DNA of 64,000 bases from Dehalococcoidia bacterium (lineage in GTDB: Bacteria > Chloroflexota > Dehalococcoidia > Plut-88900): NCBI GenBank assembly GCA_963668115.1, contig OY764147.1, positions 2,010,061 through 2,074,060 on the forward strand, given 5' to 3'. A program made the position numbers and the translations under genes. This document shows positions 1 to 50,700 of this stretch, piece after piece. Within the stretch, counting starts at the first letter, position 1. Each line of letters starts with the position of its first letter. Below the pieces are notes generated by a model, which made no database searches, was not told the DNA's origin, and was given only the letters and a program-made list of their open reading frames with translations.

Positions 1-342
1 GGCGCTGGATGGGGGGTCGAGGGTTGTGTCCTCCGAGTCCAGGGACTCGGCCGGGCGTACGCTGCGAGACCTCAGGACATCACGGCACCGGTTGGCCGCA
101 ATGGTGAACAGCCAGGACTTGAGGCTGTTGCCCTTGAACCGCTTGATGTTGCGGAATGCCGATATGAAGGCATCCTGGGTTGCATCCTCCGCAGTGGGAG
201 CGTCGCCCAGCATGCGGAGCGCCAGGTTGTACATCGGCCTCTGGTACATATCCACGATCTGGTTGAAGGCGTCGACATCCCCTTCCCGGCTACGCGCTAC
301 GAGGGCCTCCTCCGGCTCCGCTGTCCTTTCCGCGGGCGACAT
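1..342 (-). CDS. ECF-type sigma-70 factor, N-terminal part (gene continues beyond the left edge)
   Basis: Absent from the ORF track because it has no stop inside the window. Minus-strand ATG at 342. My translation is MSPAERTAEPEEALVARSREGDVDAFNQIVDMYQRPMYNLALRMLGDAPTAEDATQDAFISAFRNIKRFKGNSLKSWLFTIAANRCRDVLRSR..., which matches sigma-70 region 2 of ECF sigmas (AEDxxQxxF, WLxxIAxNxxxDxxR). Track ORFs 26..412(+) and 72..278(-) are shadows of it. Confidence 0.8.
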   Translation of the reverse strand, partial: MSPAERTAEPEEALVARSREGDVDAFNQIVDMYQRPMYNLALRMLGDAPTAEDATQDAFISAFRNIKRFKGNSLKSWLFTIAANRCRDVLRSRSVRPAESLDSEDTTLDPPSSA

Positions 343-462
343 TCGGGCAGTATACGATTGCCCGCGTCGCGTCGGCAAAACCGCGCGAGTAGCCCTTCGG
401 CCACGCTACTAATGACGGAAAAGGAGTCGGGTTTGTTCCAAGCACTGCCGCGCGTGTCTGGA

Positions 463-491
463 TTGACAAAAGATGTGCATATGGGTAAAGT
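463..491 (+). promoter_or_regulatory. Candidate sigma70-type promoter upstream of the NYN gene
   Basis: TTGACA (463-468), 17-nt spacer, TAAAGT (486-491), about 65 nt upstream of the start at 555/558. Confidence 0.35.
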
Positions 492-554
492 TTCGGGTAC
501 TTCCTCCCCGTCCGCTGGAAAGTGATCTGATCACTCTCCCCGGGCGGGTGTTTT

Positions 555-1157
555 TTGATGCGCACCATTGTCCTGATTGACGGTCAGAACCTTTATCACT
601 TGGCCCGAGCTGCGTGGGCCGCTGATTCAGACGTTCCATCTTCGCCTTATGCTTGGCCCAGCTATGATGTAGTCAAGCTGGCTCAGGCGTTGGTTGACAG
701 AAATCCCGGACGCACGCTCACCGAGACCCGGTTCTACACCGGCGTTCCCAATCCTGCGACGGGAAAGATGCAGAAATTCTGGCACGCATTCTGGTCCAAC
801 AAGCTCAGAGACATGAGAAACCGCGGCGTTTTCGTCTACCGTGGTAGGATAAACGCTGGCGGGCAGGAGAAGGGAGTAGACGTAAGTCTGGCCCTTGACC
901 TCATTCAGGCGACATACGAAAAACGCTTCGACTGCGCCATCATAGTGGGCAGGGATACGGATTTCGGGCCTGCGGTCCGCATGTCCAAAGAGATTGCCAG
1001 AATGCAGAATCGCAGCCTTGTATTTGAGTCTTCCTACCCAATAAGTTCTGGGAGTTCCTCACGAAGGGGTATCCCAGGTACCCTGTGGGTCCCTATTCTC
1101 AAATCGACCTATGATTCATGCCTCGATTTAACAGACTTTCGACAATCGATTAGGTAA
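555..1157 (+). CDS. NYN-domain (LabA/DUF88-like, PIN-fold) putative RNase
   Basis: 200-aa ORF. QEKGVDVSLALDL and IIVGRDTDFGPAV acidic motifs are typical of NYN/LabA-like proteins. TTG at 555, ATG at 558. Somewhat lower GC than neighbours. Confidence 0.7.
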   Translation: MMRTIVLIDGQNLYHLARAAWAADSDVPSSPYAWPSYDVVKLAQALVDRNPGRTLTETRFYTGVPNPATGKMQKFWHAFWSNKLRDMRNRGVFVYRGRINAGGQEKGVDVSLALDLIQATYEKRFDCAIIVGRDTDFGPAVRMSKEIARMQNRSLVFESSYPISSGSSSRRGIPGTLWVPILKSTYDSCLDLTDFRQSIR

Positions 1158-1175
1158 ACCACTTTCGTCGGCGCT

Positions 1176-1961
1176 CTACCCCCTACCCCCCGCCAGAATC
1201 TCCGCTATGGTCATCCCACCATCCAGGACGAGGTTGGTCCCAGTGACGAAGGCCGACTCGTCGCTGGCGAGATAGAGGGCCGCATATGCGCAGTCCTCGG
1301 GGGTGCCCATGTGGGGATAGGGCTGGCGGGTCTCGAAGTCCTGGACAATGTCTGGTCGAGTCCAGTAGTCCTCGTCGTTCTCCATGCCCACGAACCCGAT
1401 ATCTCCCGGCGAGATGCAGTTCACTCTTATCTTCTGCTTCGCATAGTCCAGAGCGGCCTTCTTGGTGAGCCCGATAATCGCCGCCTTGGACGCGACGTAT
1501 GAACCGGCGCACCGGTGGCTTGCGGTGACCCCCCACATGGATGCGTTGCTGACTATGGAGCCTCCGCCGTTCTTGATCATCTCCGGCACGGCATACTTTA
1601 TGCCCAGGAAAACACTCTTCAGGTTGATCGTAATACAGCGGTCCCAGCTCTCCTCCGACTCGTCGGCGGTCAGGCCCTTGCTCCCGGTGCCCGCGTTGTT
1701 GAAGAGCACGTCCAGCTTGCCGTATGCGGCGACTGTCTCTTCCACAATCCGCTGGACGTCGGCTGCGAGTGAAACGTCGGCTTTGACGAAAATTGCCTCC
1801 CCACCCCCCGCCCGAATCCCTTCTGCAACCCGTTCTCCCGCCTCAACCGTCCTCCCGGAGACCACCACCCTGGCCCCTTCCCTGGCAAACAATTCCGCGG
1901 ACCCCTTCCCTATCCCCGCCGTTGACCCGGTTACTATGGCGACTTTACCCGCAAGCCTCAT
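1176..1961 (-). CDS. Short-chain dehydrogenase/reductase (SDR)
   Basis: TGSTAGIGKG Rossmann motif, NNAG, catalytic YVASKAA (YxxxK), 261 aa. Confidence 0.9.
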   Translation of the reverse strand: MRLAGKVAIVTGSTAGIGKGSAELFAREGARVVVSGRTVEAGERVAEGIRAGGGEAIFVKADVSLAADVQRIVEETVAAYGKLDVLFNNAGTGSKGLTADESEESWDRCITINLKSVFLGIKYAVPEMIKNGGGSIVSNASMWGVTASHRCAGSYVASKAAIIGLTKKAALDYAKQKIRVNCISPGDIGFVGMENDEDYWTRPDIVQDFETRQPYPHMGTPEDCAYAALYLASDESAFVTGTNLVLDGGMTIAEILAGGRG

Positions 1962-2036
1962 GGTGTGCTACCCCCGGAGATTGTGACGGAAACTATAGCT
2001 TTAAAACTTCTTCAGGACTTGTGGAGCCATTCCAAC

Positions 2037-2354
2037 TTAGTCAAACAGACTAAGTTGCCGGATACTGGTATCGGTCGGGCCGTAGAGTTCACGGTGTCGA
2101 TTTACTGATGTAGTCTGCATCGCCTTTTTAAGAGATGGATTGGAGGTAATCACACGAATCACATCTTCAAAACCGTCCTTGCCCAACTTGTGCTCTTGTT
2201 CATGGCAATGTTGGCATCTAATAGTTAGGTTACTTTTATCGTTGTTGTCGTGATCCCAATCAATATGATGTTTATGGATGCCAACGGGTGATCCACAAGC
2301 CATGCAGGGTCCCTTAATTTTCGGCTTGGTTCTTGTCGTTTTACTTAATACCAT
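2037..2354 (-). CDS. Small HNH endonuclease
   Basis: 105 aa. CMACG...HKHHIDWDHDNNDKSNLTIRCQHCHEQEH is CxxC...HH...N...CxxCH, an HNH/zinc-finger signature. The gene and its flanks are clearly AT-richer than the neighbouring SDR genes. Confidence 0.75.
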   Translation of the reverse strand: MVLSKTTRTKPKIKGPCMACGSPVGIHKHHIDWDHDNNDKSNLTIRCQHCHEQEHKLGKDGFEDVIRVITSNPSLKKAMQTTSVNRHRELYGPTDTSIRQLSLFD

Positions 2355-2428
2355 AGAGTTGTCTATGTACTGGTATGGCGCATCAAGTGCATGCCTCTGT
2401 TGGGGTGGGCACGGGGAGGATAGGACTG

Positions 2429-3211
2429 CTACACCACGTCCCTGTACGCCGCCGCCTGCCCACCGTCGATGATCAGGGTCGCTCCTGTCACGAATGCCGA
2501 CTCGTCGGAGGCAAAGTACAGGGCGGCATAAGCCACGTCCATCGGGTGTCCCATACGACGCATCGGCTGTAGCCTCAGGCGTGTCTCTATGGTGTCAGGG
2601 TCCGAGAGCTTGTCCCAGGGGATGTCCACCATTTCGGTGGCGATCGGACCGGGATTGACAGCGTTGACTCGGATATTGTCGGCGGCGTAGACCACCGCCG
2701 CCTTCTTCGTCAGCGCCGTGACTCCACCCTTGGAAGCGTGATAGGAAATATTGGAGGCGGCGCCCGCCTGGCTGTCATTCACGGAGGAGTTGTTGATTAT
2801 AGAACCACCCCCGACCTTGCGCATCTCCGGCACTGCGTACTTGATACCCAGGAACGTTCCCTTCAGGTTGACGTCTATGACTCGGTCCCAGTCCTCCTCT
2901 GACTCCTGGGCTGGGTCGTCCATAAGACCGCTGTCGATGCCCGCGTTGTTGAACAGAACGTCCAGCCTGCCATAGGAACTGACCGCGGCATCTACCACCT
3001 TCTGCACGTCCTCCGCTCTGGATACGTCCGCCTGAACGAATATGGCCTCCCCACCCCGCCCCTTTATCAGATCGACGATCTCCTGCCCCAGCGATTCACG
3101 CCTGCCGCACATCACCACCTTGGCCCCTTCCTCGGCGAACAGTTCCGCCGCCGCCCGACCCATACCCGCAGTAGCTCCAGTCACAATGGCTACTTTTCCT
3201 TCAAGTCTCAT
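2429..3211 (-). CDS. SDR family oxidoreductase (tandem paralog A)
   Basis: TGATAGMGRA, NNAG, YHASKGG. 260 aa. Confidence 0.9.
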   Translation of the reverse strand: MRLEGKVAIVTGATAGMGRAAAELFAEEGAKVVMCGRRESLGQEIVDLIKGRGGEAIFVQADVSRAEDVQKVVDAAVSSYGRLDVLFNNAGIDSGLMDDPAQESEEDWDRVIDVNLKGTFLGIKYAVPEMRKVGGGSIINNSSVNDSQAGAASNISYHASKGGVTALTKKAAVVYAADNIRVNAVNPGPIATEMVDIPWDKLSDPDTIETRLRLQPMRRMGHPMDVAYAALYFASDESAFVTGATLIIDGGQAAAYRDVV

Positions 3212-3236
3212 GTTTTCTCCTGGTTGAATCGCTAGA

Positions 3237-4031
3237 CTAGACCACGTCCCTGTACGCCGCCGACTGCCCGCCGTCTATCAGCAACGTCGCCCCGGTCACG
3301 AATGCCGACTCGTCGCTGGCGAAGTAAAGGGCGGCGTAGGCGACGTCCATGGGGTGGCCCATCCGATTCAGTGGCTGCTTGGTCTTGCGTTCGACGACGA
3401 TGTCGGGGTCGGTGAGTTTGTCCCAGGGGATGTCCACCATCTCCGTGGCTATGGGGCCGGGGTTGACCGCGTTGACCCGGATGTTGTCCGCGGCGTAGGC
3501 CAGAGCGGCCTTCTTGGTCATGGCCGTCACGCCGCCCTTGGATGCATGATAGGAGGACATGGACACCATGTCGGCCTGGACATCGTTTACGGAGGAGTTG
3601 TTGATTATCGACCCACCCCCGGCCTTGCGCATCTCAGGCGCCGCGTACTTGATTCCGAGAAACGTGCCCTTCAGGTTCACGTCGATGATTCGGTCCCAGA
3701 TATCCTCGGGCTCCTTGTCGGGATCTCCCTCTGCATGCTCGTTGATGCCGGCATTGTTGAACAGGACGTCCAGCTTGCCGTAGGCGGTGACCGCGGTGTC
3801 GACTACCCGCTTCACGTCCTCGGCCCGGGCCACGTCTGCCGTGACGAATGTAGCCTCCCCACCTCGCCCCTTTATCAGATCGACGATCTCCTGCCCCAAC
3901 TCCTCCCGTCGCCCGCACATCACCACCTTGGCCCCTTCCTTTGCAAACAGCTCCGCCGCCGCCCGACCCATCCCCGCCGTCGCCCCCGTAACAATCGCGG
4001 CCTTATCTTTGAGCCTCAAAAGTTCCTCCAA
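3237..4031 (-). CDS. SDR family oxidoreductase (tandem paralog B)
   Basis: Same motifs as 2429..3211. Roughly four-fifths identical to it by eye, including identical C-terminal ...MGHPMDVAYAALYFASDESAFVTGATL.IDGGQ.AAYRDVV. Confidence 0.9.
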   Translation of the reverse strand: MEELLRLKDKAAIVTGATAGMGRAAAELFAKEGAKVVMCGRREELGQEIVDLIKGRGGEATFVTADVARAEDVKRVVDTAVTAYGKLDVLFNNAGINEHAEGDPDKEPEDIWDRIIDVNLKGTFLGIKYAAPEMRKAGGGSIINNSSVNDVQADMVSMSSYHASKGGVTAMTKKAALAYAADNIRVNAVNPGPIATEMVDIPWDKLTDPDIVVERKTKQPLNRMGHPMDVAYAALYFASDESAFVTGATLLIDGGQSAAYRDVV

Positions 4032-4088
4032 AGTGTGAGATGAATGTACAGTCGGGAGCGGGGGTTATTGTAGCATGAAGGGCGGACC

Positions 4089-5312
4089 TCACCCCCTCTG
4101 CAGAGTGGCCTTCCTGTCCCTCACGTACAGCATACCCGCCGACACCAGCAGTACCGCTGGCAGAAGCCCATTGATGAACAGGGCCGTCTGAAGGTCTCCC
4201 GTCGCCTCCTGAAGACCCCCGACCAGCAGCGGCCCTACCGCCGAGCCTCCCCAGATCGACGTCTCCATGAAGCTCATACCTATCCCTATCTCCCGAGGTT
4301 TGATGCCCGGGATAAGGAACACCATGATCATCAGCACGGGGAAGTAGGCGAAAGCCAGCCCCTTGAGCACGGCCAGGAACAGGACGAGGGGCGTGGAGGT
4401 GGCGTAGGCCAGGCCGGTAAGGGAGACGACGGAGGCGATCCCGCAAACGGAAAGTACCAGGGTGCGGCGTCTTATCAGGCCGGGGATGGCGTTGACCAGG
4501 AAATCGGTCGGGGCGGCTGCAAAGGTGGTCGCCCCGAGAGCAAGGCCGATGAACCCGCGCTCAAAGCCCAGGTTGTCCTCCGCAAGGGTGGGCCAGAAGT
4601 TCTGGAATCCCGCCTGCGCACCCATGGAAGCGCCCATACCCAATCCCATTATCCAGAGCTGCCTGTAGTTTCGCAGAGCGTTTAAGGGACTGGACGTTTC
4701 GGCTCGGGCCCGAGCCGCGTACTCTTCGGTGACCCTCTCTCCCCCGACTATAAGCCAGACCACGGTGAGTCCCAGCAGGATCATAGACCAGATGAAGAAC
4801 GTCTCCCTCCAGCCACCGGCAAGCTCCTGGAACTGGGGCGTGACAAGGAAGGCCATGCCCATTATCAGGTCGATGCCTGCGAAAGCGAGGCCGTTGGTGA
4901 AGGAGATGCGGTGTCGGGGGATCCACTGCTGGATTAGCAGGGCCCGGGGGGACTGGGTGGAAGTGAAGAACAGGCCCGCGCCCACCCGCCCGACGAACAG
5001 AGCGGCAAGCACCGGCGTCCAACTCTGCAACAGCGCCGAGCCCGTCACCCCCAGGAATAGAAGAGTCACCGTTCGCCACGGCCTGAACCTGGAGGTGACT
5101 AGGTTGACGGGAATGCAGAATATCAGGTTTGCGATCAGAACGGAGGAGCCGAGCCAGCCCTGGGCCAACGGCGAAAGGTTCAGTTCCTCAGATATCTCCG
5201 GAAGCAGTATCCCGATGATGAAAACGATGCTGAGGGAAGTTCCTACGCAAGAAGTCAGGGAGCCTACTACGATCCAGCGTCGGAGTCGGGGGCTTTCAGA
5301 GGTTGTTTGCAA
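4089..5312 (-). CDS. MFS transporter
   Basis: 407 aa, about 12 hydrophobic segments, two-halves architecture typical of the major facilitator superfamily. Substrate unknown. Confidence 0.8.
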   Translation of the reverse strand: MQTTSESPRLRRWIVVGSLTSCVGTSLSIVFIIGILLPEISEELNLSPLAQGWLGSSVLIANLIFCIPVNLVTSRFRPWRTVTLLFLGVTGSALLQSWTPVLAALFVGRVGAGLFFTSTQSPRALLIQQWIPRHRISFTNGLAFAGIDLIMGMAFLVTPQFQELAGGWRETFFIWSMILLGLTVVWLIVGGERVTEEYAARARAETSSPLNALRNYRQLWIMGLGMGASMGAQAGFQNFWPTLAEDNLGFERGFIGLALGATTFAAAPTDFLVNAIPGLIRRRTLVLSVCGIASVVSLTGLAYATSTPLVLFLAVLKGLAFAYFPVLMIMVFLIPGIKPREIGIGMSFMETSIWGGSAVGPLLVGGLQEATGDLQTALFINGLLPAVLLVSAGMLYVRDRKATLQRG

Positions 5313-5570
5313 TCGGACTCGCGTGAAAAGGGGTTGTAAGGACGTCCTGCGTGAAGGCTATTCTTCACCCGACACCCCCCACTGTCAACAACCGCCCCCA
5401 ACCCCTCCCCCCACACTATTTCCCACCGGCCCCCGAGTCGGTTATCATCCCCCCGACAAAACTGGACTACATACCCAACCCGACCGCCGGCTTCCCTTCC
5501 GGCCACGGTTCCTTGCCGGACCCGGAGCGGACACGGGTGCCGGCGGCAATTCCAAAAACGAGGTGATTAA

Positions 5571-6119
5571 ATGCTAGCCAGAATGTTAGGCGCCGCCCGA
5601 CTTGACTCCCACACTTACGAGGACGTCGAAAGGGATAGAGGCGCAACCCTCCAGGCACTGACCATAGTAATAATGGTCACCATCGCCAGCCTGGTTGGCG
5701 AGATGCTTACCGGCCTTCTGAACGGTGAAGAAATCGAATTGGTAAGGTCGGTGGTTGCCGGTGTGATCTTGGGAGTGATCGGCTGGGCCTTGTGGGCTCT
5801 TGTCACCTACATAATCGGAGCCACGATTTGCAAGACGCCCGATACCGAAGCCAACTGGGGACAGCTTGCCCGGTGCACGGGTTTCGCTCAGACCCCGGGG
5901 CTGCTCAATGTACTGTCCTTCATCCCGATTGTGGGAGTCCTAATAGTCTTGGTGGCCTTCGTCTGGAGTGTCGCCGCCATGGTAGTGGGCGTACGACAGG
6001 CTTTGGACTACACCTCGACTCTGCGGGCCTTCTTCGTAGTAGTTGTTTCGGCGATACCCTGGGTAGTCTTGTACGTAATCGTTCTTATAATCACCGGAGG
6101 CGTTCTGGGGTCTGAGTAA
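5571..6119 (+). CDS. Yip1-domain membrane protein
   Basis: 182 aa. The N-terminal soluble segment (...HTYEDVERDRGATLQAL) followed by 4-5 TM helices resembles the Yip1/DUF1282 family. SD GAGGTGA lies upstream of the ATG. Confidence 0.65.
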   Translation: MLARMLGAARLDSHTYEDVERDRGATLQALTIVIMVTIASLVGEMLTGLLNGEEIELVRSVVAGVILGVIGWALWALVTYIIGATICKTPDTEANWGQLARCTGFAQTPGLLNVLSFIPIVGVLIVLVAFVWSVAAMVVGVRQALDYTSTLRAFFVVVVSAIPWVVLYVIVLIITGGVLGSE

Positions 6120-6179
6120 AGGGCCCTCGACTCCGTGCAATGTAAGGAACTCGGTTGGCCTGCCGCAAATCCCGGCTAC

Positions 6180-8171
6180 CTACACCCCTCCCAGCCGGAT
6201 CGTCTGGTCGTACCGTGACCCCCGGGCCCCGACCGCATACCTCGTCTCCAGCCCCAGCACCCGGTATTTGGCCGAAGTGAGACCGACCGCCGGGTCGGTC
6301 ACCTCTATCACGTCGTAGAGCTCCTGGCCGGCGTTGACGGGCGCCGTGATGCTGCCCCGAGGGGTGTGGATCGCCATTCTCCGGGTCTCGGCCGAGGCGC
6401 GCGCGTCGGTCTTCTTACGGGTGTCGAGGCTGGCATCATGGATGTGGACCGGCCTGTCGAACAGCGCCGGAAAATCTGACCAGTCCGACAGATCGCTGGT
6501 ATGCCCCGACCCGAACACGATAGCCCGGCTGTGCCTCGGGACCGGGTCGTAATAGCGGCCCTCCCGGACCCCGTGTCCCGACCCGTATGTATAGGAGACC
6601 TTGTCGGTAGACGAGGGCGTGCGAAGTACAAAACCCCCGCTCGACGCTGTCAGCAGGACGTCCGGCACGTAGGCCATAAGCCGCTCTACTACTATGTCCA
6701 ACGGCTCGGACTCCTCAATTAGGAACTCGGGGCGGTGGTTGTCCAGCAGGTAGTTGGTTGACAGGCTTGCACACTCGTAACCGGCCCGGGCCAGAACATC
6801 CCTCAATATCTGGAAAACGGTGGCCTTGCCCGCGGCCCAGTTGCGCTCCCGACGCGCCTGCTGCCACCCCAGCAGCCCCCAGCCTCCGGTCGCGTGAACG
6901 ACCAGCGTCGATGCCCCTCCTTTCCGACAGTGCTCCAGACCCTCAATCCAGGTCGGCCCGACCGTCGATAGCTGCCTGCCATGCCCGGTCATGTACCCCA
7001 GCTTCACCCTCACCTCCGATCCCTTGGTCAGCAGCCCCAGGTCTCCCTCCCCCGGCCGCGAATAGCGCCCGTCGTCGTTGCGTAGCTCTATTTGCCACCC
7101 GGTAGCTCTCGTCGATTCCTTCCCGGTCACCGAGACAACGTCGTCGCTCAGGTCCAGAGGCGGGGAGCTCAGGGGCGCCGACCACACGCCGTTGGCGGTG
7201 GAGAGCCAGGCCTCGTCTGACGAATGCCCGAAGGCCATGCCGTAGGCGGAATCGAGGTCGAAGGCCGCCGGCTCCCGCCATAGGCCGTCCGAAAACGATG
7301 CCGAAGGCGTGCCAAAGGTGAAGAAGGGCCGGTTATACCCGCCCTTCCCCGATACCCGCTCCGTGAAGAAGAGCCTGTCCACGTCCGGCCGTTCCAGGGA
7401 GGGTGTACGGTATTCCGGGGTCTGGCCGGGCCTCGACTCCGTGACGGCCTTCAGCCCCGACCACGTATTCAACGTCTGCGCAGAACCCTCCCCGAACAAT
7501 GTGGTCCACACCCCGTTCCTGCTGTTCCCTGAGTCGCCACCCGTGACCGCGACGTTCCAGTCGCCGTTGAAGTGGACGGCCACCCCGTCGATGCGGGACA
7601 GGGAGTTGGTCCAGATGCGCGTTGACCCCCAGACGCCGGAGGTGCGCCGGATTGCGTAAAGGCCGTTTCCAATCACGTAGAGCAGAAGGACGGAGCCGTT
7701 AGGGTTGAAGGCCGCGGCCAGGGAGGTCACGGGAGACGACGCAGTGGTCACGGACGCGGGCTGCCCGAAGGTCGTGCCGCTATCGGAACTGCCCCTGACG
7801 TTAAGCGTCTTCCGGTTGGAGGACACCGAGAACAGCAGCACCTCCGACCCGTTCGAACACAGGGCCACCCCGGCGTCCCCGGAAACGGCGCCCAAGGAGA
7901 CCCAACGGGTGAAGTCGGATGTTGGCGAGGGTGTCGCAACCCGCTGGAAATAAAGGTTGTGGCCGTTTGATGGATCGACGCGGGCGCGCACCAGCGAACC
8001 GTCGGCGGGAATGACCAGCGCGTGAGGCCCCTCGGCCTCGGTGCCCGTATGGATGCGCCTGAACCGAAGGCGGGCTATCCCCGCCATCCGGTCCCGTACC
8101 TCCACCCCGACGCACGGCCGGGAGGAGGACGCCTTTTGGGCTTTCAGCAAGGCGTCGGTCAGTATCCGCAT
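6180..8171 (-). CDS. Phage-like structural protein: BNR/sialidase-like N-terminal half plus tail-hub-like C-terminal half
   Basis: 663 aa. Asp-box-like SSDSGTTF and repeated propeller-like segments in the N half. The C half (…YRVLGLETRYAVGARGSRYDQTIRLGGV) recalls phage tail/late-control-D-like proteins by eye only. Its start is 1 nt after the stop of the upstream gene. Confidence 0.45.
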   Translation of the reverse strand: MRILTDALLKAQKASSSRPCVGVEVRDRMAGIARLRFRRIHTGTEAEGPHALVIPADGSLVRARVDPSNGHNLYFQRVATPSPTSDFTRWVSLGAVSGDAGVALCSNGSEVLLFSVSSNRKTLNVRGSSDSGTTFGQPASVTTASSPVTSLAAAFNPNGSVLLLYVIGNGLYAIRRTSGVWGSTRIWTNSLSRIDGVAVHFNGDWNVAVTGGDSGNSRNGVWTTLFGEGSAQTLNTWSGLKAVTESRPGQTPEYRTPSLERPDVDRLFFTERVSGKGGYNRPFFTFGTPSASFSDGLWREPAAFDLDSAYGMAFGHSSDEAWLSTANGVWSAPLSSPPLDLSDDVVSVTGKESTRATGWQIELRNDDGRYSRPGEGDLGLLTKGSEVRVKLGYMTGHGRQLSTVGPTWIEGLEHCRKGGASTLVVHATGGWGLLGWQQARRERNWAAGKATVFQILRDVLARAGYECASLSTNYLLDNHRPEFLIEESEPLDIVVERLMAYVPDVLLTASSGGFVLRTPSSTDKVSYTYGSGHGVREGRYYDPVPRHSRAIVFGSGHTSDLSDWSDFPALFDRPVHIHDASLDTRKKTDARASAETRRMAIHTPRGSITAPVNAGQELYDVIEVTDPAVGLTSAKYRVLGLETRYAVGARGSRYDQTIRLGGV

Positions 8172-8172
8172 T

Positions 8173-8793
8173 CTAATGGCCCCCGACGCCGGTCGCCGGA
8201 CGGCGTAGCTGCCGAGCCCTCAGCCTGCCGCGGGGCCCGTGCCTCGCCAGCGCCCGGTGAAAGACGCTCAACCGCTCCCGACCCCACACCATGTAGTCCC
8301 GCCATACGCTGTCCCCTCCGGCGTTGAGCCGGTTTATGGTGAACCTCGACATGCTGAGCGCGGCATACCCCGACGCCCCCGCCACCAGTACGTCCTCCAG
8401 CGCTTCCGGCACGGTAGAGGCGGTGTAGTCCAGGGAATGGAGCTTGCCGTAGTAGACCGCTGCCTGCTCACCCTCGCCCGGGATCCGGTCCGTGAGCAAA
8501 GTCAGAGTATCTCCCCAGACCCGGAACCCGACGAATGCCGGCGGAGACTGGCCGGCCGGGTACTCGACGGAATCGACGAGCACCAGGCCGGCCAGGGAAG
8601 AGAGGGAGAGGTGCCGCGACCCCGCGGTGACGTTCAGGGTGGCCTTGCTCTCCAGGGGCGCGGCAAGGCTGAGCTCCCTGAGGGCGTGAGAGATGTGCCG
8701 GTCCAGCTCCGCGCTGGCCCAGCGGTATTCGCTGGAGTCCTCGTCGTGGAGGTCGGTGCGGACGCGCGCCCTGATATCGGTGAGTGTTGTCAT
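8173..8793 (-). CDS. Phage-like protein following the capsid gene (possible head-tail adaptor)
   Basis: 206 aa, MTTLTDIRARVRTDLHDEDSSEYRWASAELDRHI... The position directly after the major capsid gene and the N-terminal motif resemble conserved capsid-adjacent phage proteins. Function not established. Confidence 0.4.
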   Translation of the reverse strand: MTTLTDIRARVRTDLHDEDSSEYRWASAELDRHISHALRELSLAAPLESKATLNVTAGSRHLSLSSLAGLVLVDSVEYPAGQSPPAFVGFRVWGDTLTLLTDRIPGEGEQAAVYYGKLHSLDYTASTVPEALEDVLVAGASGYAALSMSRFTINRLNAGGDSVWRDYMVWGRERLSVFHRALARHGPRGRLRARQLRRPATGVGGH

Positions 8794-8826
8794 GGGTGCT
8801 CTCCCTTCCTGCTCCCGGTATCCGGG

Positions 8827-9717
8827 CTAGTTCCGTATTCCCGTGAGCTTGGCCAGCTTGACTGTGCTGAACAGGGCCACGGCCACGTACCACTTCACCC
8901 GGGTCCGGGTGGCATCCTTGGTCTCCAGGCTCCCGACCCGCTCCACCTGTAGGCCCGAGGGCCCCGTCAGCCCCGACACCCCCTCCTCTCCGAACTGCAC
9001 GGCGTGCACCGTCGAGCAGTCCCGGCTGGTCCCCGCCCTCTGGTCGTCGGCCACCCAGTCGCTGATGCCTATGGGGACGCCGTCGTAGAACTGGACCATC
9101 TGGCTGAGCATGTTGCGGTCGGTCTGGAGAAACCCGCTGCCGGAGTCTCGCACTAGGGAATTCATCTTGCGCCTGGTGCGGCGGCTCATGATCAGCATGT
9201 CGGGCTTGCCGGGCTTTACCTTGTCGATCAGCTCGTCCAGCTTGTCCAGGGTCAGGGTCGCTCCGTTGTCGCCCATGCTTACCGTCTGGCCGGCGGGGGT
9301 GAGCTTGTCGATCCCATCGAAGGCCTTGGAGTTGACCTCCGTATCGCCGTTGATGAAAGTGTCGTCGAACTTCTGCTGTACGGCCTTGGCCTTGAGCTCG
9401 ACGACGGCGGCTTCCAGGTCTTGGATGTTGCTGCGGGTCGCCGCCACGTAGTTGTCCACGTCGGCATCGCCGCCCAGGATCTTCAGGGTGGCGGTGACCT
9501 GGGTGAAGGTGGGCGTAGACTCGGCCCAGGCGTCTCCCACGTCGTAGAAGGCTACGGTCGGGGCGGCGTTCTCCCGGTTGTAGGTCAGGGAGTTCCCGAC
9601 TATTTCGATGAAGGGCAGGTGCTGGAGCACCGGGCTTTCGTTGACTATGGTCTCGATTACCCCGGACAGGAGCACGTCGTTGGACAGTTTTGCGGACTCG
9701 GTTAGCGTCAATGCCAT
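8827..9717 (-). CDS. HK97-fold-like phage major capsid protein
   Basis: 296 aa, MALTLTESAKLSNDVLLSGVIETIVNESPVLQHLPFIEIVGNSLTYNRE...LKILGGDADVDNY... I recognise this pattern from phage major capsid proteins that use a separate scaffold. Strong SD AAGGAG upstream. Confidence 0.7.
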   Translation of the reverse strand: MALTLTESAKLSNDVLLSGVIETIVNESPVLQHLPFIEIVGNSLTYNRENAAPTVAFYDVGDAWAESTPTFTQVTATLKILGGDADVDNYVAATRSNIQDLEAAVVELKAKAVQQKFDDTFINGDTEVNSKAFDGIDKLTPAGQTVSMGDNGATLTLDKLDELIDKVKPGKPDMLIMSRRTRRKMNSLVRDSGSGFLQTDRNMLSQMVQFYDGVPIGISDWVADDQRAGTSRDCSTVHAVQFGEEGVSGLTGPSGLQVERVGSLETKDATRTRVKWYVAVALFSTVKLAKLTGIRN

Positions 9718-9751
9718 TGTGTTTTTTCTCCTTGTTTGTCTTGCTTTATGG

Positions 9752-10180
9752 TTAGCTGTTGTTGATGGCGTAAAGGATCTTTTCCCTGGGGCTCAGGCCC
9801 GAGACGTCGGCCGGGCGTCTGACCGGCGCACCCGATGGCACCCGGGTCTCCGGTGACCGGGCCCCGATGCGGGACGCCACCTTCTCGACGATCTTCCTCG
9901 CCGATTCCACGGAGCGGTCCAGCTCCTCGATGGTGCTTCCCTGCACCAGCTCTTCCGGCAGCTCCGGCGCCCCGGCTATCAGGGCGCTGCGGTAGCGGTC
10001 CACGGCCAGTTCGACCTGCTGCTTGATCCCTCTGATCTCCGCGTCCTTCTCGGCAATCAGAAGGTTCAGGCGCTTTATCTCCGGCGACTCCTCCGGGGGT
10101 GATTCCTCGGGTATCGGGTCTTCAACGTAGTCCAATGACGACTCGGGGTCGGGGCCCTGGGATGTAGATTCTTCGGGCAC
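9752..10180 (-). CDS. Putative capsid scaffolding protein
   Basis: 142 aa. Acidic/Pro-rich N-terminus, central coiled-coil-like segment (IKRLNLLIAEKDAEIRGIKQQVELAVDRYRSAL). Lies directly upstream of the capsid gene. GTG start at 10180 preceded by AAGGAG. Confidence 0.5.
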   Translation of the reverse strand: MPEESTSQGPDPESSLDYVEDPIPEESPPEESPEIKRLNLLIAEKDAEIRGIKQQVELAVDRYRSALIAGAPELPEELVQGSTIEELDRSVESARKIVEKVASRIGARSPETRVPSGAPVRRPADVSGLSPREKILYAINNS

Positions 10181-10212
10181 AAACTTCTCCTTGAATGAAC
10201 GTATTTGCTAAC

Positions 10213-10240
10213 AGTATAAAAGTTCTGTGACAGATGTCAA
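10213..10240 (-). promoter_or_regulatory. Canonical sigma70-type promoter of the scaffold-capsid operon
   Basis: Minus strand: TTGACA (10240-10235), 16-nt spacer, TATACT (10218-10213), in a short AT-rich patch about 30 nt upstream of the GTG at 10180. Confidence 0.5.
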
Positions 10241-10261: not shown

Positions 10262-10650
10262 TAAACTCCCACCCCCCCACTCACCCCTTCCCATTCCAAT
10301 GCCCCGCGAGGTAAAAGATGTCGAAGATGCGCCTAGGCGTGCGCCTATGGCGTGAATCTACAGCGCAAGCCCACCACTCACCCCCCTCATCCCCACCCAC
10401 CCAATGCCATGTCGTTCCGAACGGCAGTGAGGTCGAAGATGCGCCTCAGGCGTGAATCCGGGGAGGGGCGGTGCAGGTCTCGCAACTCACCTCGATATTC
10501 ACCATCCACCCCGCCCACCCCTCTCCCCCATCAGCCCCACCCACCTTACACCGTCATTCCTGCGGAGGCAGGAATCCATCCCTCCGAAACACTCACCTAC
10601 AACCCCGCCCACTCACGCCTCCCCCTCCAGCCCTTCTAAATTGGACATTT
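10262..10650. repeat. Cluster of mosaic intergenic hairpin repeats (GTCATTCC...GGAATCC family and GTCGAAGATGCGCCT module)
   Basis: Copies at about 10291-10358, 10411-10459 and 10551-10612. The same modules recur in at least 10 other intergenic gaps of this window. Confidence 0.85.
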
Positions 10651-11150
10651 GCACTATCTGAACCCTCGTGCTATACTACCCACCACGGCCACCGACCTCG
10701 TATGTCGGAACCCATCACAGGAAAGGAAAAGGAACAAGGACTCCCGTGAGCCGCACCGGCCTACATAGGCCCCGTCGCACCCGACCGGCATCCCAACGCC
10801 CGGCCCCCGACACGCGCCTCCTCCATTCACCCTTTCCACACCCCAACACCCACAACAAGCGCTGCCCAAAGGCCCAACGCCTAGACCTTCGCAGCGATCA
10901 ATCACTGCCCCGCCCCTCGAATGGAAGGTTCCCGGACAAATCACGGCACGCCCTATCGGAGGGCCGCCAAGTGAGCGCCCCACTCAAGCGGCGCAAGGGT
11001 TTCGCCCCCTCAGGCGACGCTACGGAGCACAGCGTCAAGCTCTTCCCCTGGGCCATAGCGCCCTTCTCGGACTCCCCCGGCGTATACCTCGCCGACCTGT
11101 CCGAGCAGTCGGATACGCTCCGACTCAAAACAATCGCACCATACATGGAC

Positions 11151-11468
11151 TCCACCGTCGTCACCATCGGCAAGCTCCGGTCTACGAACGCCGGTCACGG
11201 GTCTACGCTCCCATCCCCCAGGGTGGTAGAGCACTTCCGGTGGTCGAGACTGCCCCAGAGCGAGAATCTCTCGCGTCTCGTCCACGTCCTCTCGGGAGTA
11301 TGGGGCAAGGATTCCACCGTCGTCACACTCGGAGAACTTCCGACTACGAACGGCGGTCACGGGTCTACGCTCCCATCCCTCAGGGTGGTAGAGCACTTCC
11401 GGTGGTCGAGGCTGCCCCAGAGCGAGAATTTCTCGCGTCTCGTCCACGTCCCCTCGGAAGTATGGGGC
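11151..11468. repeat. Tandem duplication, 2 x 162 nt
   Basis: Unit 1 is 11151-11306 and unit 2 is 11313-11468, period 162 nt, about 90% identical by eye. Each unit contains nested hairpins CGAGAC[..GCGAGA-AUC-UCUCGC..]GUCUCG. Confidence 0.9.
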
Positions 11469-11586
11469 TGTCGCAGAGTCGACGCCGGTGTGGACCGTCC
11501 CCAGGGGCGGACACCCCGCATCGGAACAGGCGTCGCCGACATCCTGCACAAACCGTCCGGGACCTTCCATCCCCACCCTTCCCCCT

Positions 11587-11860
11587 CCGTCATTCCTGCG
11601 GAGGCAGGTCGAAGATGCGCCTATGGCGTGAATCCATCCCTCCGGAACAATCACCTGCAACCCCACAACTCACCCCGTCCCCCTTCCGTCATCCCGCCCC
11701 CGCCCCCCTGGGAAGGACATATCAAAAATGTCGAAGACCCACCTTTGGAGGGCACTGCATTTTTGATATGTCAACTTTTTCTCCGGGAGGTGGGGCTGGG
11801 GTCTCCCCTATCCGTAGGGGCGATCGGCGGGTCGCCCTCCTCCTGCCCCCCACCCCACGC
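11587..11860. repeat. Hairpin-repeat cluster including a 15-bp AT-rich stem hairpin and a GGGCGAYCGGCGGGTCGCCC hairpin
   Basis: GTCATTCC element at 11587-11680. Hairpin GACATATCAAAAATG / CATTTTTGATATGTC at 11716-11772, with a second copy at 48108-48164. GC hairpin at 11806-11852, with a second copy at 27528-27563. Confidence 0.85.
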
Positions 11861-23096: not shown

Positions 23097-23426
23097 GTGA
23101 CCGAGATCAAGGAATACGTTGACCACCGGGGCCGTAGTCCCTTCGGTCGATGGTTCGATGGTCTGAATGCTGCGGCAGCGACTAGAGTTAGAACAGCCCT
23201 TGCACGGATGGAAGCCGGCAATCTATCCAATGTCAGGGGCGTTGGGAGTGGGGTCCAGGAGTTCCGTTTGCACTTCGGGCCGGGCTACAGGGTCTATTTC
23301 GGCAGGGATGGAGATACGTTGATAATCCTGCTAGGCGGCGGGACCAAAGTTCGACAACAAAGAGACATAGAAAACGCCCGCGAGTTTTGGCAAGACTACA
23401 GGCGACGCAAGCAACAGGAGGTATGA
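23097..23426 (+). CDS. Addiction-module killer protein (RelE/HigB-like toxin)
   Basis: 109 aa. ...FRLHFGPGYRVYFGRDGDTLIILLGGGTKVRQQRDIENA... is typical of the putative addiction module killer family. Confidence 0.8.
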   Translation: MTEIKEYVDHRGRSPFGRWFDGLNAAAATRVRTALARMEAGNLSNVRGVGSGVQEFRLHFGPGYRVYFGRDGDTLIILLGGGTKVRQQRDIENAREFWQDYRRRKQQEV

Positions 23427-23429
23427 ATC

Positions 23430-23747
23430 ATGCCCCTCACCCGAGATTTCAAAGAAACCGTCCATGCCCGAGCCCTACGCGACCCAGCCTTCCGAGAGGG
23501 GTTGCTGAAAGAGGGTATCGATCTCTTGCTTGCCGGAGACGTCGACGCAGGCAAGATCGTACTTCGGGACTACATCAACGCGACCATCGGGTTCGAAGAA
23601 TTAGGTTCTCTTACCAACAAGCCATCCAAGAGCCTCATGCGCATGTTCGGGCCGAACGGCAATCCCCAGGCCCGAAACCTCTTCCACGTCATTAGCTGCA
23701 TCCAGCAACACCAGGGCGTCCAGCTTGAAGTGAACGCCGTTCGGTAG
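23430..23747 (+). CDS. Cognate antidote/DNA-binding antitoxin
   Basis: 105 aa, begins 4 nt after the toxin stop. ...DPAFREGLLKEGIDLLLAGDVDAGKIVLRDYINAT... resembles antidote proteins paired with that killer family. Confidence 0.65.
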   Translation: MPLTRDFKETVHARALRDPAFREGLLKEGIDLLLAGDVDAGKIVLRDYINATIGFEELGSLTNKPSKSLMRMFGPNGNPQARNLFHVISCIQQHQGVQLEVNAVR

Positions 23748-28715: not shown

Positions 28716-29150
28716 TCACACAGATATGACGTATAGGAAAGACTTGTCCTTCTCTGCTAACAACCCCTCCATCCCCGCATCCAGCGTCGCCAGTTGGCCC
28801 CCTCGCTGCATTGCCGTAGCCAGCAGAACGGCATCCGTAACTTGACGATACCCGTGGATACGGGCGCCGATTGAATCCGGCAAATCGACTATCGACCAGT
28901 CCATCGGCCAAAAAGAATGTTCTCCCAGCCGCGTCAAGCTTTTCAACGCATCAATGGCATCGAGAGGAGTTACCGTATCCCGTACCACCGTGGGATTGCA
29001 GGAGAGCCGTACAAAACCCGACTCCGTCAGGGCACAAGTCGCCCATCCTTCCCACTGGTGTTCTTTGAACCACGCGTTGGCGGCTGCATGATGCGCGTGA
29101 TTTGACCAGACCAAGGCTAACAGGACGTTCACGTCCAGAAGCGCGGTCAC
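28716..29150 (-). CDS. vapC: VapC-type PIN-domain toxin
   Basis: LLDVNVLLAL (first acidic residue), ...QVTDAVLLATA. 144 aa. 4-nt overlap with the upstream antitoxin. Confidence 0.85.
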   Translation of the reverse strand: MTALLDVNVLLALVWSNHAHHAAANAWFKEHQWEGWATCALTESGFVRLSCNPTVVRDTVTPLDAIDALKSLTRLGEHSFWPMDWSIVDLPDSIGARIHGYRQVTDAVLLATAMQRGGQLATLDAGMEGLLAEKDKSFLYVISV

Positions 29151-29377
29151 GGAAATTCGTCCAGCGCCTTGTACACGTCCTCACTGGTGAATGGTTCGGC
29201 ATTGGGATTTATGGGGAAAAACGGTATGTCATCACGTTTCGCGCTCGTGTTTACCCCATTCCTAAACCCCCGGCGCGCCAGCTCCGACACCGCGCTCCCT
29301 AAGCTACCCCCGTTACGTGCTGCTAACGCCCGCGCTACCGACAGGACATCGTCATCTATGGTTAGTGTTGTCCGCAT
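29147..29377 (-). CDS. vapB: VapB-type antitoxin
   Basis: MRTTLTIDDDVLSVARALAARNGGSLGSAVSELARRGF is a typical VapB N-terminus. Start chosen at ATG 29377 rather than the track start 29413. Confidence 0.75.
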   Translation of the reverse strand: MRTTLTIDDDVLSVARALAARNGGSLGSAVSELARRGFRNGVNTSAKRDDIPFFPINPNAEPFTSEDVYKALDEFP

Positions 29378-29517
29378 GACAACATCATAGCATCGTAACA
29401 TCAACATTGCCAATCAGTGGCTTAGTACCTCCTGGCAGGGAAGCTCATACACTGCATTTGCCCCGTTAATTATCGGGTGAGACAATCAAGAAGTGGGGTC
29501 CATCCGAATAGCAGGGA

Positions 29518-48832: not shown

Positions 48833-50362
48833 TCATTCCCCGGCCCTTCCTGAAAGAACGGAAAATTCCACCCCCGCACAGGGGTTTCCCCTCGCGGTTT
48901 CACCCTTTTCCCTGGAACGGGATCGCCCTCCCTTGGAGCGTGGTGTTCTCGGCGCTCCGGCCCTAACGGGCGCGGAAGTTTGTTTTGCGGCGCCAGCCGG
49001 CGTCGTTTCAGCCGGCCCGAGGGCCAGAAGCCCCCGGCGCAGTATGTTCCTGGCAGCGTTCACGTCCGCGTGGTCGCGGTGCCCGCACTCCACGCACCTG
49101 AACTCCGCTTGTTTCTTCCTGTTGTCCGGGCTGACCGATCCGCACCTGTTGCAGGCCTGGCTCGTGTGTCGGGGATCGACCCGCACAAACCGGATACCGG
49201 CCCTTTCAGCCTTGTACTCCAGCTGCGTCAGTGTCGCCCCCCAGCCCCGCTCCAGTATAGATCTGTTCAGCCTTCGCTTCGCCGAGACGTTCTTTCCGGG
49301 CGCCTCCTCCGTACCCCGCGCCGACCGTATCATGTTCGGTATATCCAGGTCCTCTACGGCTATGAAATCGTGACCGCTGTTGACAATCTCGTTGGTTATC
49401 CGGTGAATCCAGTTCCTCTGCGATAGCCGCTCCCTTTCGCAGACTCTCCCATATTCGGCGCGCGTCTTGGCGTAGTTGCGTCCCGCCCCCTCTGACCACA
49501 CCAGCTTCGCCTTCCCGCTGCCCGTCGGCCTGTAGTGCGCCCTCCCGTTACTGACCGCCGACTTCATTTGTCGGGCCATCCTCCGGCTCAACCGGCGTTT
49601 GCGCGCCTGAGTGCCGTCGTCCGTACGCGGGGGCGCGGGAATCTCCACTAGCCCGTCCGACGTTGCGATGGTGTTCGCCACCCCCACGTCAAGACCTACG
49701 GGCGATTTCGGCTCGCATGGCATCATCTCCAGTTGCCGGGGCTCCGCGGGTTGATGCTCGTATGCCATCGAAGCCATTACCCTTACCGGTGTCCGCGTTA
49801 TGCGGATGACCTTGGGCTGACCATCGGGGAGCGGGCGGCTCGGCGGTCGAAAGTGCAACGGCGGCAAACCCTTTATCTTGATTGCCCCGCCGCCCTTTTC
49901 ATTCAGCTTCAGATTGTTCCCATCCCCCGTGTATATGTCCAGCGTGCGGAACCGGTTGCGGGACTTGAATCGGGGCCGTCCGCCCCTCATTCCGTCCTGC
50001 TTCCGTTGCCGGAACCGCTTGTACGCTTCATTTGCCCTGTTCAGCGTGCCCGCGGACGTACCCGCATGCATCCGTCGGTCCTGGGCCTCATAGGCAGGGT
50101 CGTCCTCGCGGATGCCCGTCACCTCCCTCGCCTGCGAGGCCAAGGTCACCGCAGCTGGCACCGGAAACCGTCGCTCAACGAACTCCTCCGATGCGCCTCC
50201 GTTGATTGCCGCAAAGCGCAATGCCGCGTACTTCCCCGCCGCAAACCGCTCTTCCAGAGCCGCGTTGTACAGCCGCCTGTTTAGCTCCAACGCCTCGTCC
50301 AGCCGCCGGTGCCCCGCCCTGCTCAGCCGCAGCGTAACCTGCCTCGTGTCTCCCATGCCCAT
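48833..50362 (-). CDS. tnpB: TnpB (IS200/IS605-family OrfB, RuvC-like RNA-guided nuclease family)
   Basis: RPRFKS..., GLDVGV (RuvC-I Asp), FIAVEDLDI (RuvC-II Glu), HTSQACNRCG...FRCVECGHRDHADVNAARNI (zinc ribbon plus RuvC-III Asp). Start at ATG 50362 or 50356. The long basic C-terminal tail probably overlaps the omega-RNA region. Confidence 0.88.
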   Translation of the reverse strand: MGMGDTRQVTLRLSRAGHRRLDEALELNRRLYNAALEERFAAGKYAALRFAAINGGASEEFVERRFPVPAAVTLASQAREVTGIREDDPAYEAQDRRMHAGTSAGTLNRANEAYKRFRQRKQDGMRGGRPRFKSRNRFRTLDIYTGDGNNLKLNEKGGGAIKIKGLPPLHFRPPSRPLPDGQPKVIRITRTPVRVMASMAYEHQPAEPRQLEMMPCEPKSPVGLDVGVANTIATSDGLVEIPAPPRTDDGTQARKRRLSRRMARQMKSAVSNGRAHYRPTGSGKAKLVWSEGAGRNYAKTRAEYGRVCERERLSQRNWIHRITNEIVNSGHDFIAVEDLDIPNMIRSARGTEEAPGKNVSAKRRLNRSILERGWGATLTQLEYKAERAGIRFVRVDPRHTSQACNRCGSVSPDNRKKQAEFRCVECGHRDHADVNAARNILRRGLLALGPAETTPAGAAKQTSAPVRAGAPRTPRSKGGRSRSREKGETARGNPCAGVEFSVLSGRAGE

Positions 50363-50389
50363 GCAAAAATCATAGCACACCCCCAATCC

Positions 50390-50700
50390 TCTTCCCTCCT
50401 GTCATTCCGATGCCCCGCGAGGAATCTCAAGCGCAAGCCTACCGCCGCCCGTCCCTCCTGGCCACCCACTCTTTGCCGTCATTCCTGCGGAGGCAGGAAT
50501 CCATCCCTCCTGAACAACCACCTATATCCTAGCAATCCATCCCTTCCCCGGTGTGGGGATTCCGTTCGCCCTGAGTTTGTCGAAGGGTCGCTAGAACGGA
50601 ATGGGGGCGGCCCACGCCTCTCCAACCCCCCACCCCCCTAACCCGCCATTCCCGAGTAGTCGGGAATCCATCCCCGGCGGAGCAGGGTGGGGCGGCATCC
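50390..50700. repeat. Hairpin-repeat cluster
   Basis: GTCATTCCGATGCCCCGCGAGGAATC (about 50402-50428), the 50476-50545 element, ATTCCGTTC-N27-GAACGGAAT (50551-50610), CGCCATTCCCGAGTAGTCGGGAATCC (50644-50675). Confidence 0.85.

Follow-up and report, generated by a model that had tools for sequence, protein, structure and literature searches.

A Chromosomally Fixed Operon of Phage Structural Genes in Dehalococcoidia, Probably Part of a Gene-Transfer-Agent-Like System

A stretch of 64,000 nucleotides from the genome of a Dehalococcoidia bacterium (assembly GCA_963668115.1, contig OY764147.1, positions 2,010,061 to 2,074,060), referred to here as the window, carries an operon of four phage-type structural genes. 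The operon is probably the structural half of a chromosomally fixed, domesticated particle system of Dehalococcoidia that resembles gene transfer agents (GTAs). A GTA-like working is the most likely one because the genes come without a replication, integration or lysis module, are inherited with the chromosome and are under purifying selection. The gene set has the composition by which GTAs are recognized: structural and packaging genes and, in the loci inspected, none of the modules for replication, lysogeny or an autonomous virus. A bolder form of this reading is plausible, at somewhat less than an even chance. It holds that the genes form an independently domesticated GTA family, the first in Chloroflexota, class-wide in Dehalococcoidia and podovirus-like, with about 8-12 scattered, co-evolving genes. 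No published description of this gene set was found in the literature searched. A preprint on the Dehalococcoides element IME1 was considered as one and set aside, as that element is of a filamentous type and unrelated.

The four open reading frames (ORFs) in the ORF list of the window all lie on the minus strand, with intergenic gaps of 34, 33 and 1 nt. In order of transcription they encode a scaffold-like protein (9752-10180; 142 aa, GTG start, helical with an acidic N-terminus), a major capsid protein of the epsilon15 gp7 / HK97 family (8827-9717; 296 aa), a head-to-tail adaptor of the SU10-adaptor family (8173-8793; 206 aa) and a tail hub (6180-8171; 663 aa) that appears to join a beta-propeller to a hub of the gp27/Mu gp44/protein-D type. 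A sigma-70-type promoter is predicted on the same strand at 10213-10240 (TTGACA, a 16-nt spacer and TATACT). It scores 11/12 in a consensus scan and is the best of three promoter-like sites, where 0.9 are expected.

The motif AAGGAG forms a Shine-Dalgarno sequence upstream of both the scaffold and the capsid gene, and GGAAGGGAG is the ribosome-binding site of the adaptor gene. The hub gene has a G-run ahead of its start and is coupled to the adaptor gene from stop to start. Eight genomes share a -35 element CTTGAC, a -10 element TAT[AT][CA]T, a CAAATC box and the AAGGAG sequence, in intergenic DNA that is otherwise unalignable. The GC content of the four-gene region (0.63-0.68) is that of the remaining window. 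A preliminary description of this DNA had proposed four tightly packed minus-strand genes with exactly these gaps, strong ribosome-binding sites, a near-consensus promoter and host-like GC content, and all four points are borne out by these observations.

The 296-aa protein, first described as HK97-fold-like, scores above the cut-offs of curated family models in profile searches. It matches NF045672, the epsilon15 gp7 family, with 205.3 bits (cut-off 75, E 1.5e-60), PF05065 with 47.4 bits (cut-off 24.2, E 2e-12), TIGR01554 with 40.6 bits (cut-off 27.5, E 1.6e-10) and PF20911 with 35.1 bits (cut-off 27); its match to phrog_212 has an E of 1.5e-73. By these profiles it is an HK97-family major capsid protein of the epsilon15 gp7 subfamily. 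It has more than 6000 homologues, with identities of 73-94% and lengths of 295-296 aa among the best 120. A check by structure models, suggested in the preliminary description, served the hub (below) and failed for the capsid protein. The AlphaFold2 (AF2) model of the latter, built from a 12-sequence alignment, is unusable (predicted local distance difference test score, pLDDT, 34; predicted template-modelling score, pTM, 0.19) and shows only a long spine-like helix at aa 87-122. The sole profile match in the PDB, to designed 'Pizza' propellers, covers 28 residues and was rejected as spurious.

The adaptor-like character proposed for the 206-aa protein is upheld by PF24175, the SU10 adaptor family (34.7 bits, cut-off 27, aa 2-145 covered), and by a conserved position downstream of the capsid gene, seen in 117 loci. 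The protein also matches phrog_399 (E 2e-10), and a PDB sequence search gave a weak match to adaptor gp12 of 7wmp (E 0.15). The 142-aa protein may be a scaffold. It matches the head-scaffolding family phrog_233 weakly (E 0.003), and its gene (cluster c2) immediately precedes the capsid gene in 89 loci; on these two observations its earlier naming as scaffold-like is judged correct.

The 663-aa protein found no match in searches of hidden Markov model (HMM) libraries, and the Pfam BNR profile does not match it. Its AF2 model, built from an alignment of 36 homologues, is confident (pLDDT 91.7, pTM 0.87) and divides the protein into an N-terminal propeller (about aa 37-335) and a hub (about aa 336-663). 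In Foldseek searches of the PDB the C-terminal half resembles the hubs of gp27, Mu gp44, VgrG and extracellular contractile injection systems (eCIS) at E of about 1e-16. The matches to this half range from 1e-16 to 1e-13 at probability 1.0, as for 7b5h_AJ (1.6e-16), and template-modelling scores normalised to the target are 0.62-0.75 for 3d37, 3cdd, 1wru, 9rku and 8fqc. Structural matches of the hub in BFVD are named 'protein D / 43 kDa tail protein'. The N-terminal propeller matches lectins and a pseudaminidase in Foldseek (E about 1e-9) with a high root-mean-square deviation, and it contains one canonical Asp-box only, SSDSGTTF at aa 128. The model thus supports the earlier division into a propeller half and a tail-hub half, and the protein is best described as a predicted fusion of a propeller to a tail hub of the gp27/Mu-gp44 type.

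Packaging genes accompany the structural genes in related genomes. When all ORFs of 163 related loci were clustered, a recurrent order was found: a small protein c13 (about 121 aa), the large terminase TerL (about 463 aa), a zinc-ribbon/helix-turn-helix (HTH) protein (about 114 aa), the portal (about 440-465 aa), scaffold, capsid, variable genes, adaptor, hub and c5 (70 aa). Small proteins c8 and c9 sometimes lie between adaptor and hub. The portal of these loci matches PF05133 (5.8e-14) and phrog_64 (7e-28). TerL found no match in a PDB sequence search. Its motifs RQGGKNE, LLLE[VI]DESQD and GHDD are invariant among the TerL proteins of related loci. The first of these is the Walker A motif (for example in L164, 7846-9240), with Asn after Lys where Ser or Thr is usual.

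No portal was found within the window when it was searched with the portals of related loci. Portal and terminase would be absent because the window ends just short of them. In the related locus L006 the packaging module lies about 8 kb beyond the hub gene, and the DNA between them holds genes for an anti-sigma factor, an extracytoplasmic function (ECF) sigma factor, an NYN protein, three short-chain dehydrogenases (SDR), a major facilitator superfamily (MFS) protein and Yip1. Positions 1-8126 of the window align with this DNA in the same order (74-82% nucleotide identity), and window position 1 falls within the sigma gene. In L164, also colinear with 1-8126, portal and TerL lie beyond the ECF sigma gene. 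Because of the colinearity with L006, the portal, HTH, TerL and c13 genes can be placed, by inference, about 2.2-6.3 kb to the left of window position 1, on the strand opposite to the operon.

A search with the nearest intact portal found a portal, P0243, on a contig of 3,012,175 bp, which is also the length of the contig that carries the capsid (P0001) and hub (P0121) of the window; the two are taken to be the same contig. Such a genome search for an unlinked portal had been proposed at the outset, when the operon was regarded as an orphan. That label does not survive, given a portal on the same contig, a co-evolving portal/terminase module and a terminase remnant in the spacer described below. 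The earlier statement that the window has neither portal nor terminase is right for intact genes and wrong for the terminase fragment. The Yip1 gene named earlier as a neighbour of the operon has its counterpart between hub and packaging module in L006. The packaging half is a transcription unit of its own. In other lineages it can be directly adjacent to the structural genes or hundreds of kilobases away, and in the L013 genome about 696 kb separate the portal/TerL module from the capsid cassette.

Two further observations concern the DNA between the modules. The pair of ECF sigma and zf-HC2 anti-sigma genes lies between the packaging and the structural module in the window clade, and likewise in the sister clade, although the two clades differ by an inversion (window 7-378, minus strand; L164 12155-13868; also L007-L009 and L052). 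The pair may regulate the system, or its position may be a coincidence. NYN genes were considered as a linked component after they were seen near three loci, and were rejected as they occur in only 4 of 166.

Selection was measured as the ratio of non-synonymous to synonymous divergence (dN/dS), with L004-L006 as the syntenic relatives compared. The dS to these three is about 0.3-1.1; syntenic genomes differ from one another by a dS of 0.3-1.3, similar to that of flanking host genes. dN/dS is 0.06-0.07 for the capsid, 0.12-0.17 for the adaptor, 0.15-0.16 for the hub and 0.24-0.32 for the scaffold gene; host values are 0.16-0.17 for enolase and 0.07-0.09 for the MFS and SDR genes. Within the hub gene the propeller and the hub domain both have values of 0.11-0.22. 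At an enolase identity of 88.6%, that of the capsid protein is 94%. For the packaging genes the values are 0.08-0.11 (portal), about 0.35 (TerL) and 0.4-0.75 (c13). Of the eight genes of the system, all but c13 thus fall within 0.06-0.35. All four window ORFs are intact and of orthologue length, and the window branch has as many lineage-specific changes as that of L006, whose packaging module is intact, so no relaxation is seen. All four operon genes are under purifying selection, as the dN/dS check asked for in the preliminary description makes plain. Capsid and portal also co-diverge when unlinked: among 41 genomes, unlinked cases included, their identities are correlated with a Mantel r of 0.91 (0/2000 permutations).

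A search of species-representative genomes returned 590 matching stretches, and the taxonomy and closure figures are from the best 80. All of these belong to Dehalococcoidia/Chloroflexota, with capsid identities of 71-94%, and many lie on closed chromosomes of 2-3.4 Mb. Judged by these matches, the gene set is present in hundreds of Chloroflexota species genomes, mostly Dehalococcoidia. The order capsid-adaptor-hub is near-universal among related loci. The hub is apart from the adaptor in nine genomes, and in L063 neither adaptor nor hub adjoins the capsid gene. Chromosomal neighbours are common to the species within a clade and differ between clades; the synteny check in relatives that had been called for is positive to this extent. 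In the loci inspected, both modules are flanked by host genes, and the 10 kb on either side of each are free of integrase, replication and lysis genes. No tRNA or Rfam family was found in the 64-kb window. Spot checks of window ORFs, which were not an exhaustive scan, found no other phage-like genes. Synteny within clades, host-like dS and purifying selection together point to vertical inheritance with the chromosome.

The region between capsid and adaptor is variable in other clades. It can hold genes of clusters c6, c7, c36, c43, c55, c83 and c166 (for example L014 10919-12113, L150 992-3160 and L087 2585-3688), some of which encode 500-aa fibre-like proteins. The conserved 70-aa protein c5, encoded after the hub, recurs as the N-terminus of c55. 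Both the variable genes and c5 are absent from the window clade.

The spacer next to the operon was at first described as 1.7 kb of repeat-filled non-coding DNA. Repeats are present, and the spacer is more than repeats, for it holds a decayed fragment of a large-terminase gene (10845-11666, plus strand). In tblastn searches with TerL proteins from related loci the fragment matches with E down to 1.6e-20 and corresponds to part of the nuclease domain, about aa 166-412 of TerL. Against the TerL of L164 the E is 3e-20, and blastn gives 76% identity over 180 nt. The fragment has no ATPase domain, its GC content at third codon positions (GC3) is a non-coding-like 0.68, and a 162-nt tandem duplication inside it (11144-11305 / 11306-11467) is in perfect register at 90% identity. 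At 36-53% identity to TerL proteins, it has diverged far beyond what would be expected of an orthologue. It shares its strand with the presumed intact TerL module. The fragment could be derived from an old paralogue, a second element or imported DNA.

Repeats resembling miniature inverted-repeat transposable elements (MITEs) flank this fragment. Their core, GTCATTCCTGCGGAGGCAGGAATCCA, has three matches in dispersed positions (10553, 34353 and 50478) where none is expected, and copies lie at 10300-10640 and 11568-11700. The translation of the repeat, 'VIPAEAGIHP...', recurs in frame inside the portal P0243, and in L164 it is also seen at the C-terminal end of the HTH protein. These occurrences suggest that the repeat inserts into genes of the particle system.

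If the operon does belong to a GTA-like system, two halves would act together. The structural half would supply a scaffold, an HK97-type capsid, a portal adaptor and a trimeric tail hub with a propeller of a glycan-binding type. The packaging half would supply the small c13 protein, the large terminase, the zinc-ribbon/HTH protein and the portal. Host RNA polymerase would transcribe the operon from the conserved sigma-70-type promoter, and scaffold and capsid protein would assemble at the portal. The terminase would then fill the head with DNA, after which adaptor and hub would close the portal and form a stub, podovirus-like tail. Finally, the propeller of the hub would bind a glycan on the surface of a recipient cell.

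Several observations weigh against this reading. As annotated, P0243 is without about 60 conserved N-terminal residues, and it carries an in-frame repeat insertion of about 40 aa, so the portal of the window genome may be damaged. For the two closest relatives, L004 and L005, no portal was found on their contigs among the best 120 portal matches. No lysis or release gene for a particle system was found in the gene neighbourhoods inspected. The window clade has none of the small proteins c5, c8 and c9 that are encoded with the hub in other clades. The differences in neighbourhood from clade to clade could stem from ancient mobility. What the sequences establish is the identity of the genes, their conservation and selection, the split layout and the co-divergence; that particles assemble, package DNA, bind glycans through the propeller and transfer genes is inferred from homology.

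The alternative that survives best is that the genes make domesticated phage-like particles which serve something other than DNA transfer between kin, such as PBSX-like killing or defence, or decoy capsids. This is unlikely, though it is the least so of the alternatives. Conservation and selection bear on it exactly as they do on the GTA-like reading, a hub with a lectin-like propeller suits any cell-binding particle, and the present data in no way separate transfer from killing. What speaks against it is the terminase: DNA packaging appears to be selected because TerL is intact, with invariant ATPase and nuclease motifs. In addition, the loci inspected show no linked cargo gene for a toxin or for lysis.

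Less probable still is a mobile element, either a helper-dependent satellite or a defective prophage, that moves horizontally between Dehalococcoidia and relies on a helper phage for the functions it lacks. It would account for the differing gene neighbourhoods of the clades and for the varying genes between capsid and adaptor, which are like phage mosaics. In IMG/VR, too, 295 short contigs that carry the capsid gene are classed as viral. The flanks of those inspected are cellular genes, however, and the nearest capsid protein of a cultured phage is only 43.5% identical. The window and the loci inspected have no integrase, att repeat or tRNA target, and position is conserved among species with dS of 0.3-1.3. 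Excision as one unit is ruled out because the modules are split by host genes and lie up to about 696 kb apart. The helper-dependent satellite put forward in the preliminary description is therefore disfavoured.

It is very improbable that the four genes form a cassette with a portal-independent role, either as an encapsulin-like compartment or as a surface-displayed shell with a glycan-binding appendage. Selection maintains the cassette in genomes with a portal that is not adjacent, and possibly also in some with a damaged portal, and the loci of group D keep capsid and adaptor without an adjacent hub. Yet adaptor and hub have no known docking site besides the portal, and the portal is itself under strong purifying selection and co-diverges with the capsid even when unlinked. 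An encapsulin-like role is unlikely because portal, terminase, adaptor and hub are co-inherited, and no cargo-type gene is linked. A domesticated capsid had been one of three early explanations, in a GTA-like or an encapsulin-like version; the GTA-like version is the best supported of the three, and the encapsulin-like one is disfavoured.

Least probable of all is the first of those explanations, a plain decaying prophage remnant without current function: the terminase pseudogene fragment, the shortened portal with its insertion and the small tail proteins missing from the window clade would fit it, but the four ORFs are intact and under purifying selection (dN/dS 0.06-0.32, the capsid more conserved than enolase), promoter and Shine-Dalgarno sequences are conserved, the window branch has no excess of changes, and intact orthologues are found in hundreds of genomes.

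The GTA-like reading can be set beside known systems. Like the GTAs (RcGTA of Rhodobacter capsulatus and its relatives, BaGTA, VSH-1, Dd1 and VTA), the Dehalococcoidia system comprises phage genes for head, packaging and tail and nothing else, is passed on with the chromosome, is under purifying selection, is distributed over more than one locus and has a host-type promoter for its structural operon. Selection for translational efficiency is among the properties reported for GTA genes (PMC9765227). The capsid gene of the window has a GC3 of 0.89, the highest of its neighbourhood, and is reminiscent of that selection. The system differs from GTAs in being unrelated in sequence, with a capsid of the epsilon15 gp7 type, and in having a stub tail of adaptor and gp27-like hub, without genes for tube, tape measure or terminator. 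Its host phylum is Chloroflexota, and its gene set is very small, with 8 genes in the window clade. Random packaging, transfer and regulation are known for GTAs, whose particles carry mostly random host DNA, in amounts too small to hold the GTA gene set, into recipient cells; the Dehalococcoidia system is known here from its gene sequences.

Its relatives among viruses are phages of the epsilon15, SU10 and Ab18 types, with which it shares the capsid HMM families NF045672, PF20911 and PF17236 and the SU10 adaptor family. Contiguous versions of the system have the same order of terminase, portal, scaffold, capsid, adaptor and tail. These phages have full tails and genes for lysis, replication and early functions, all of which are absent here, where host genes form the flanks.

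Capsid-forming phage-inducible chromosomal islands (PICIs) and other satellites also have a small chromosomal set of capsid, scaffold, portal, adaptor and terminase genes without a full phage genome. Unlike them, the present system has no integrase, att site or replication module in the loci inspected, cannot be excised in one piece because host genes split its modules, keeps its position within clades and encodes its own tail hub.

Defective prophages of the PBSX type are likewise chromosomally fixed sets of phage-derived particle genes that are unable to propagate themselves. PBSX is a contiguous, myovirus-like cluster of about 28 kb with lysis and regulatory genes, whereas the present system is podovirus-like, split and made up of 8-12 genes. 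Encapsulins, finally, offer another HK97-fold shell protein encoded in cellular genomes outside a virus. They are linked to cargo enzymes and come without a scaffold, portal, terminase, adaptor or hub; here the reverse is found, and clustering of the related loci gave no conserved cargo-type neighbour of the capsid gene.

Other features of the window lie outside the operon. A 377-aa ORF at 50801-51934 (plus strand) has tandem peptide repeats (DARGTAPRKNPRSTVPGV...) and an acidic tail, and no Pfam match. A c13-like match at 51287-51415 (E about 1e-6) falls in a short helical segment of this unrelated repeat protein and was rejected as part of the system. A TnpB / IS605 OrfB-type gene at 48833-50386 (minus strand; Cas12f1-like TNB domain, 1e-23) lies beside the MITE-like repeat copy at 50478. 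Three tandem SDR paralogues occupy 1176-4031 (minus strand), the first and second with a small HNH-like ORF (2037-2354) between them; this ORF is missing from relatives, which have three or four SDR copies. Two putative toxin-antitoxin loci were recognized by eye, one resembling an addiction-module killer/antidote pair (23097-23747, plus strand) and one a PIN-domain protein (28716-29150, minus strand). The GC content falls to 0.53, against about 0.62, in a patch at 29000-31000 that contains a gene for a leucine-rich-repeat protein (29518-30660).

Dehalococcoidia occur in large numbers in subsurface, soil and marine habitats and play an important part in dehalogenation. The lineage is almost uncultured, and its members often have no peptidoglycan wall. 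To our knowledge, no more than a few independent GTA families have been described, none of them from Chloroflexota. The present system appears to be a separate domestication of the GTA-like kind, in a phylum new for it and with a new architecture. It would add to the known cases of virus domestication one whose packaging and structural modules have moved away from each other and yet co-evolve, and would offer a very small gene set (8 in this clade) for a DNA-filled capsid with a receptor-binding stub tail. One practical consequence is that virus-detection pipelines label these chromosomal loci as viral contigs. If the reading is true, the system is possibly a major route of DNA exchange in Dehalococcoidia, and a conserved, minimal, split system of this kind would provide a testable mechanism of horizontal gene flow in the class.

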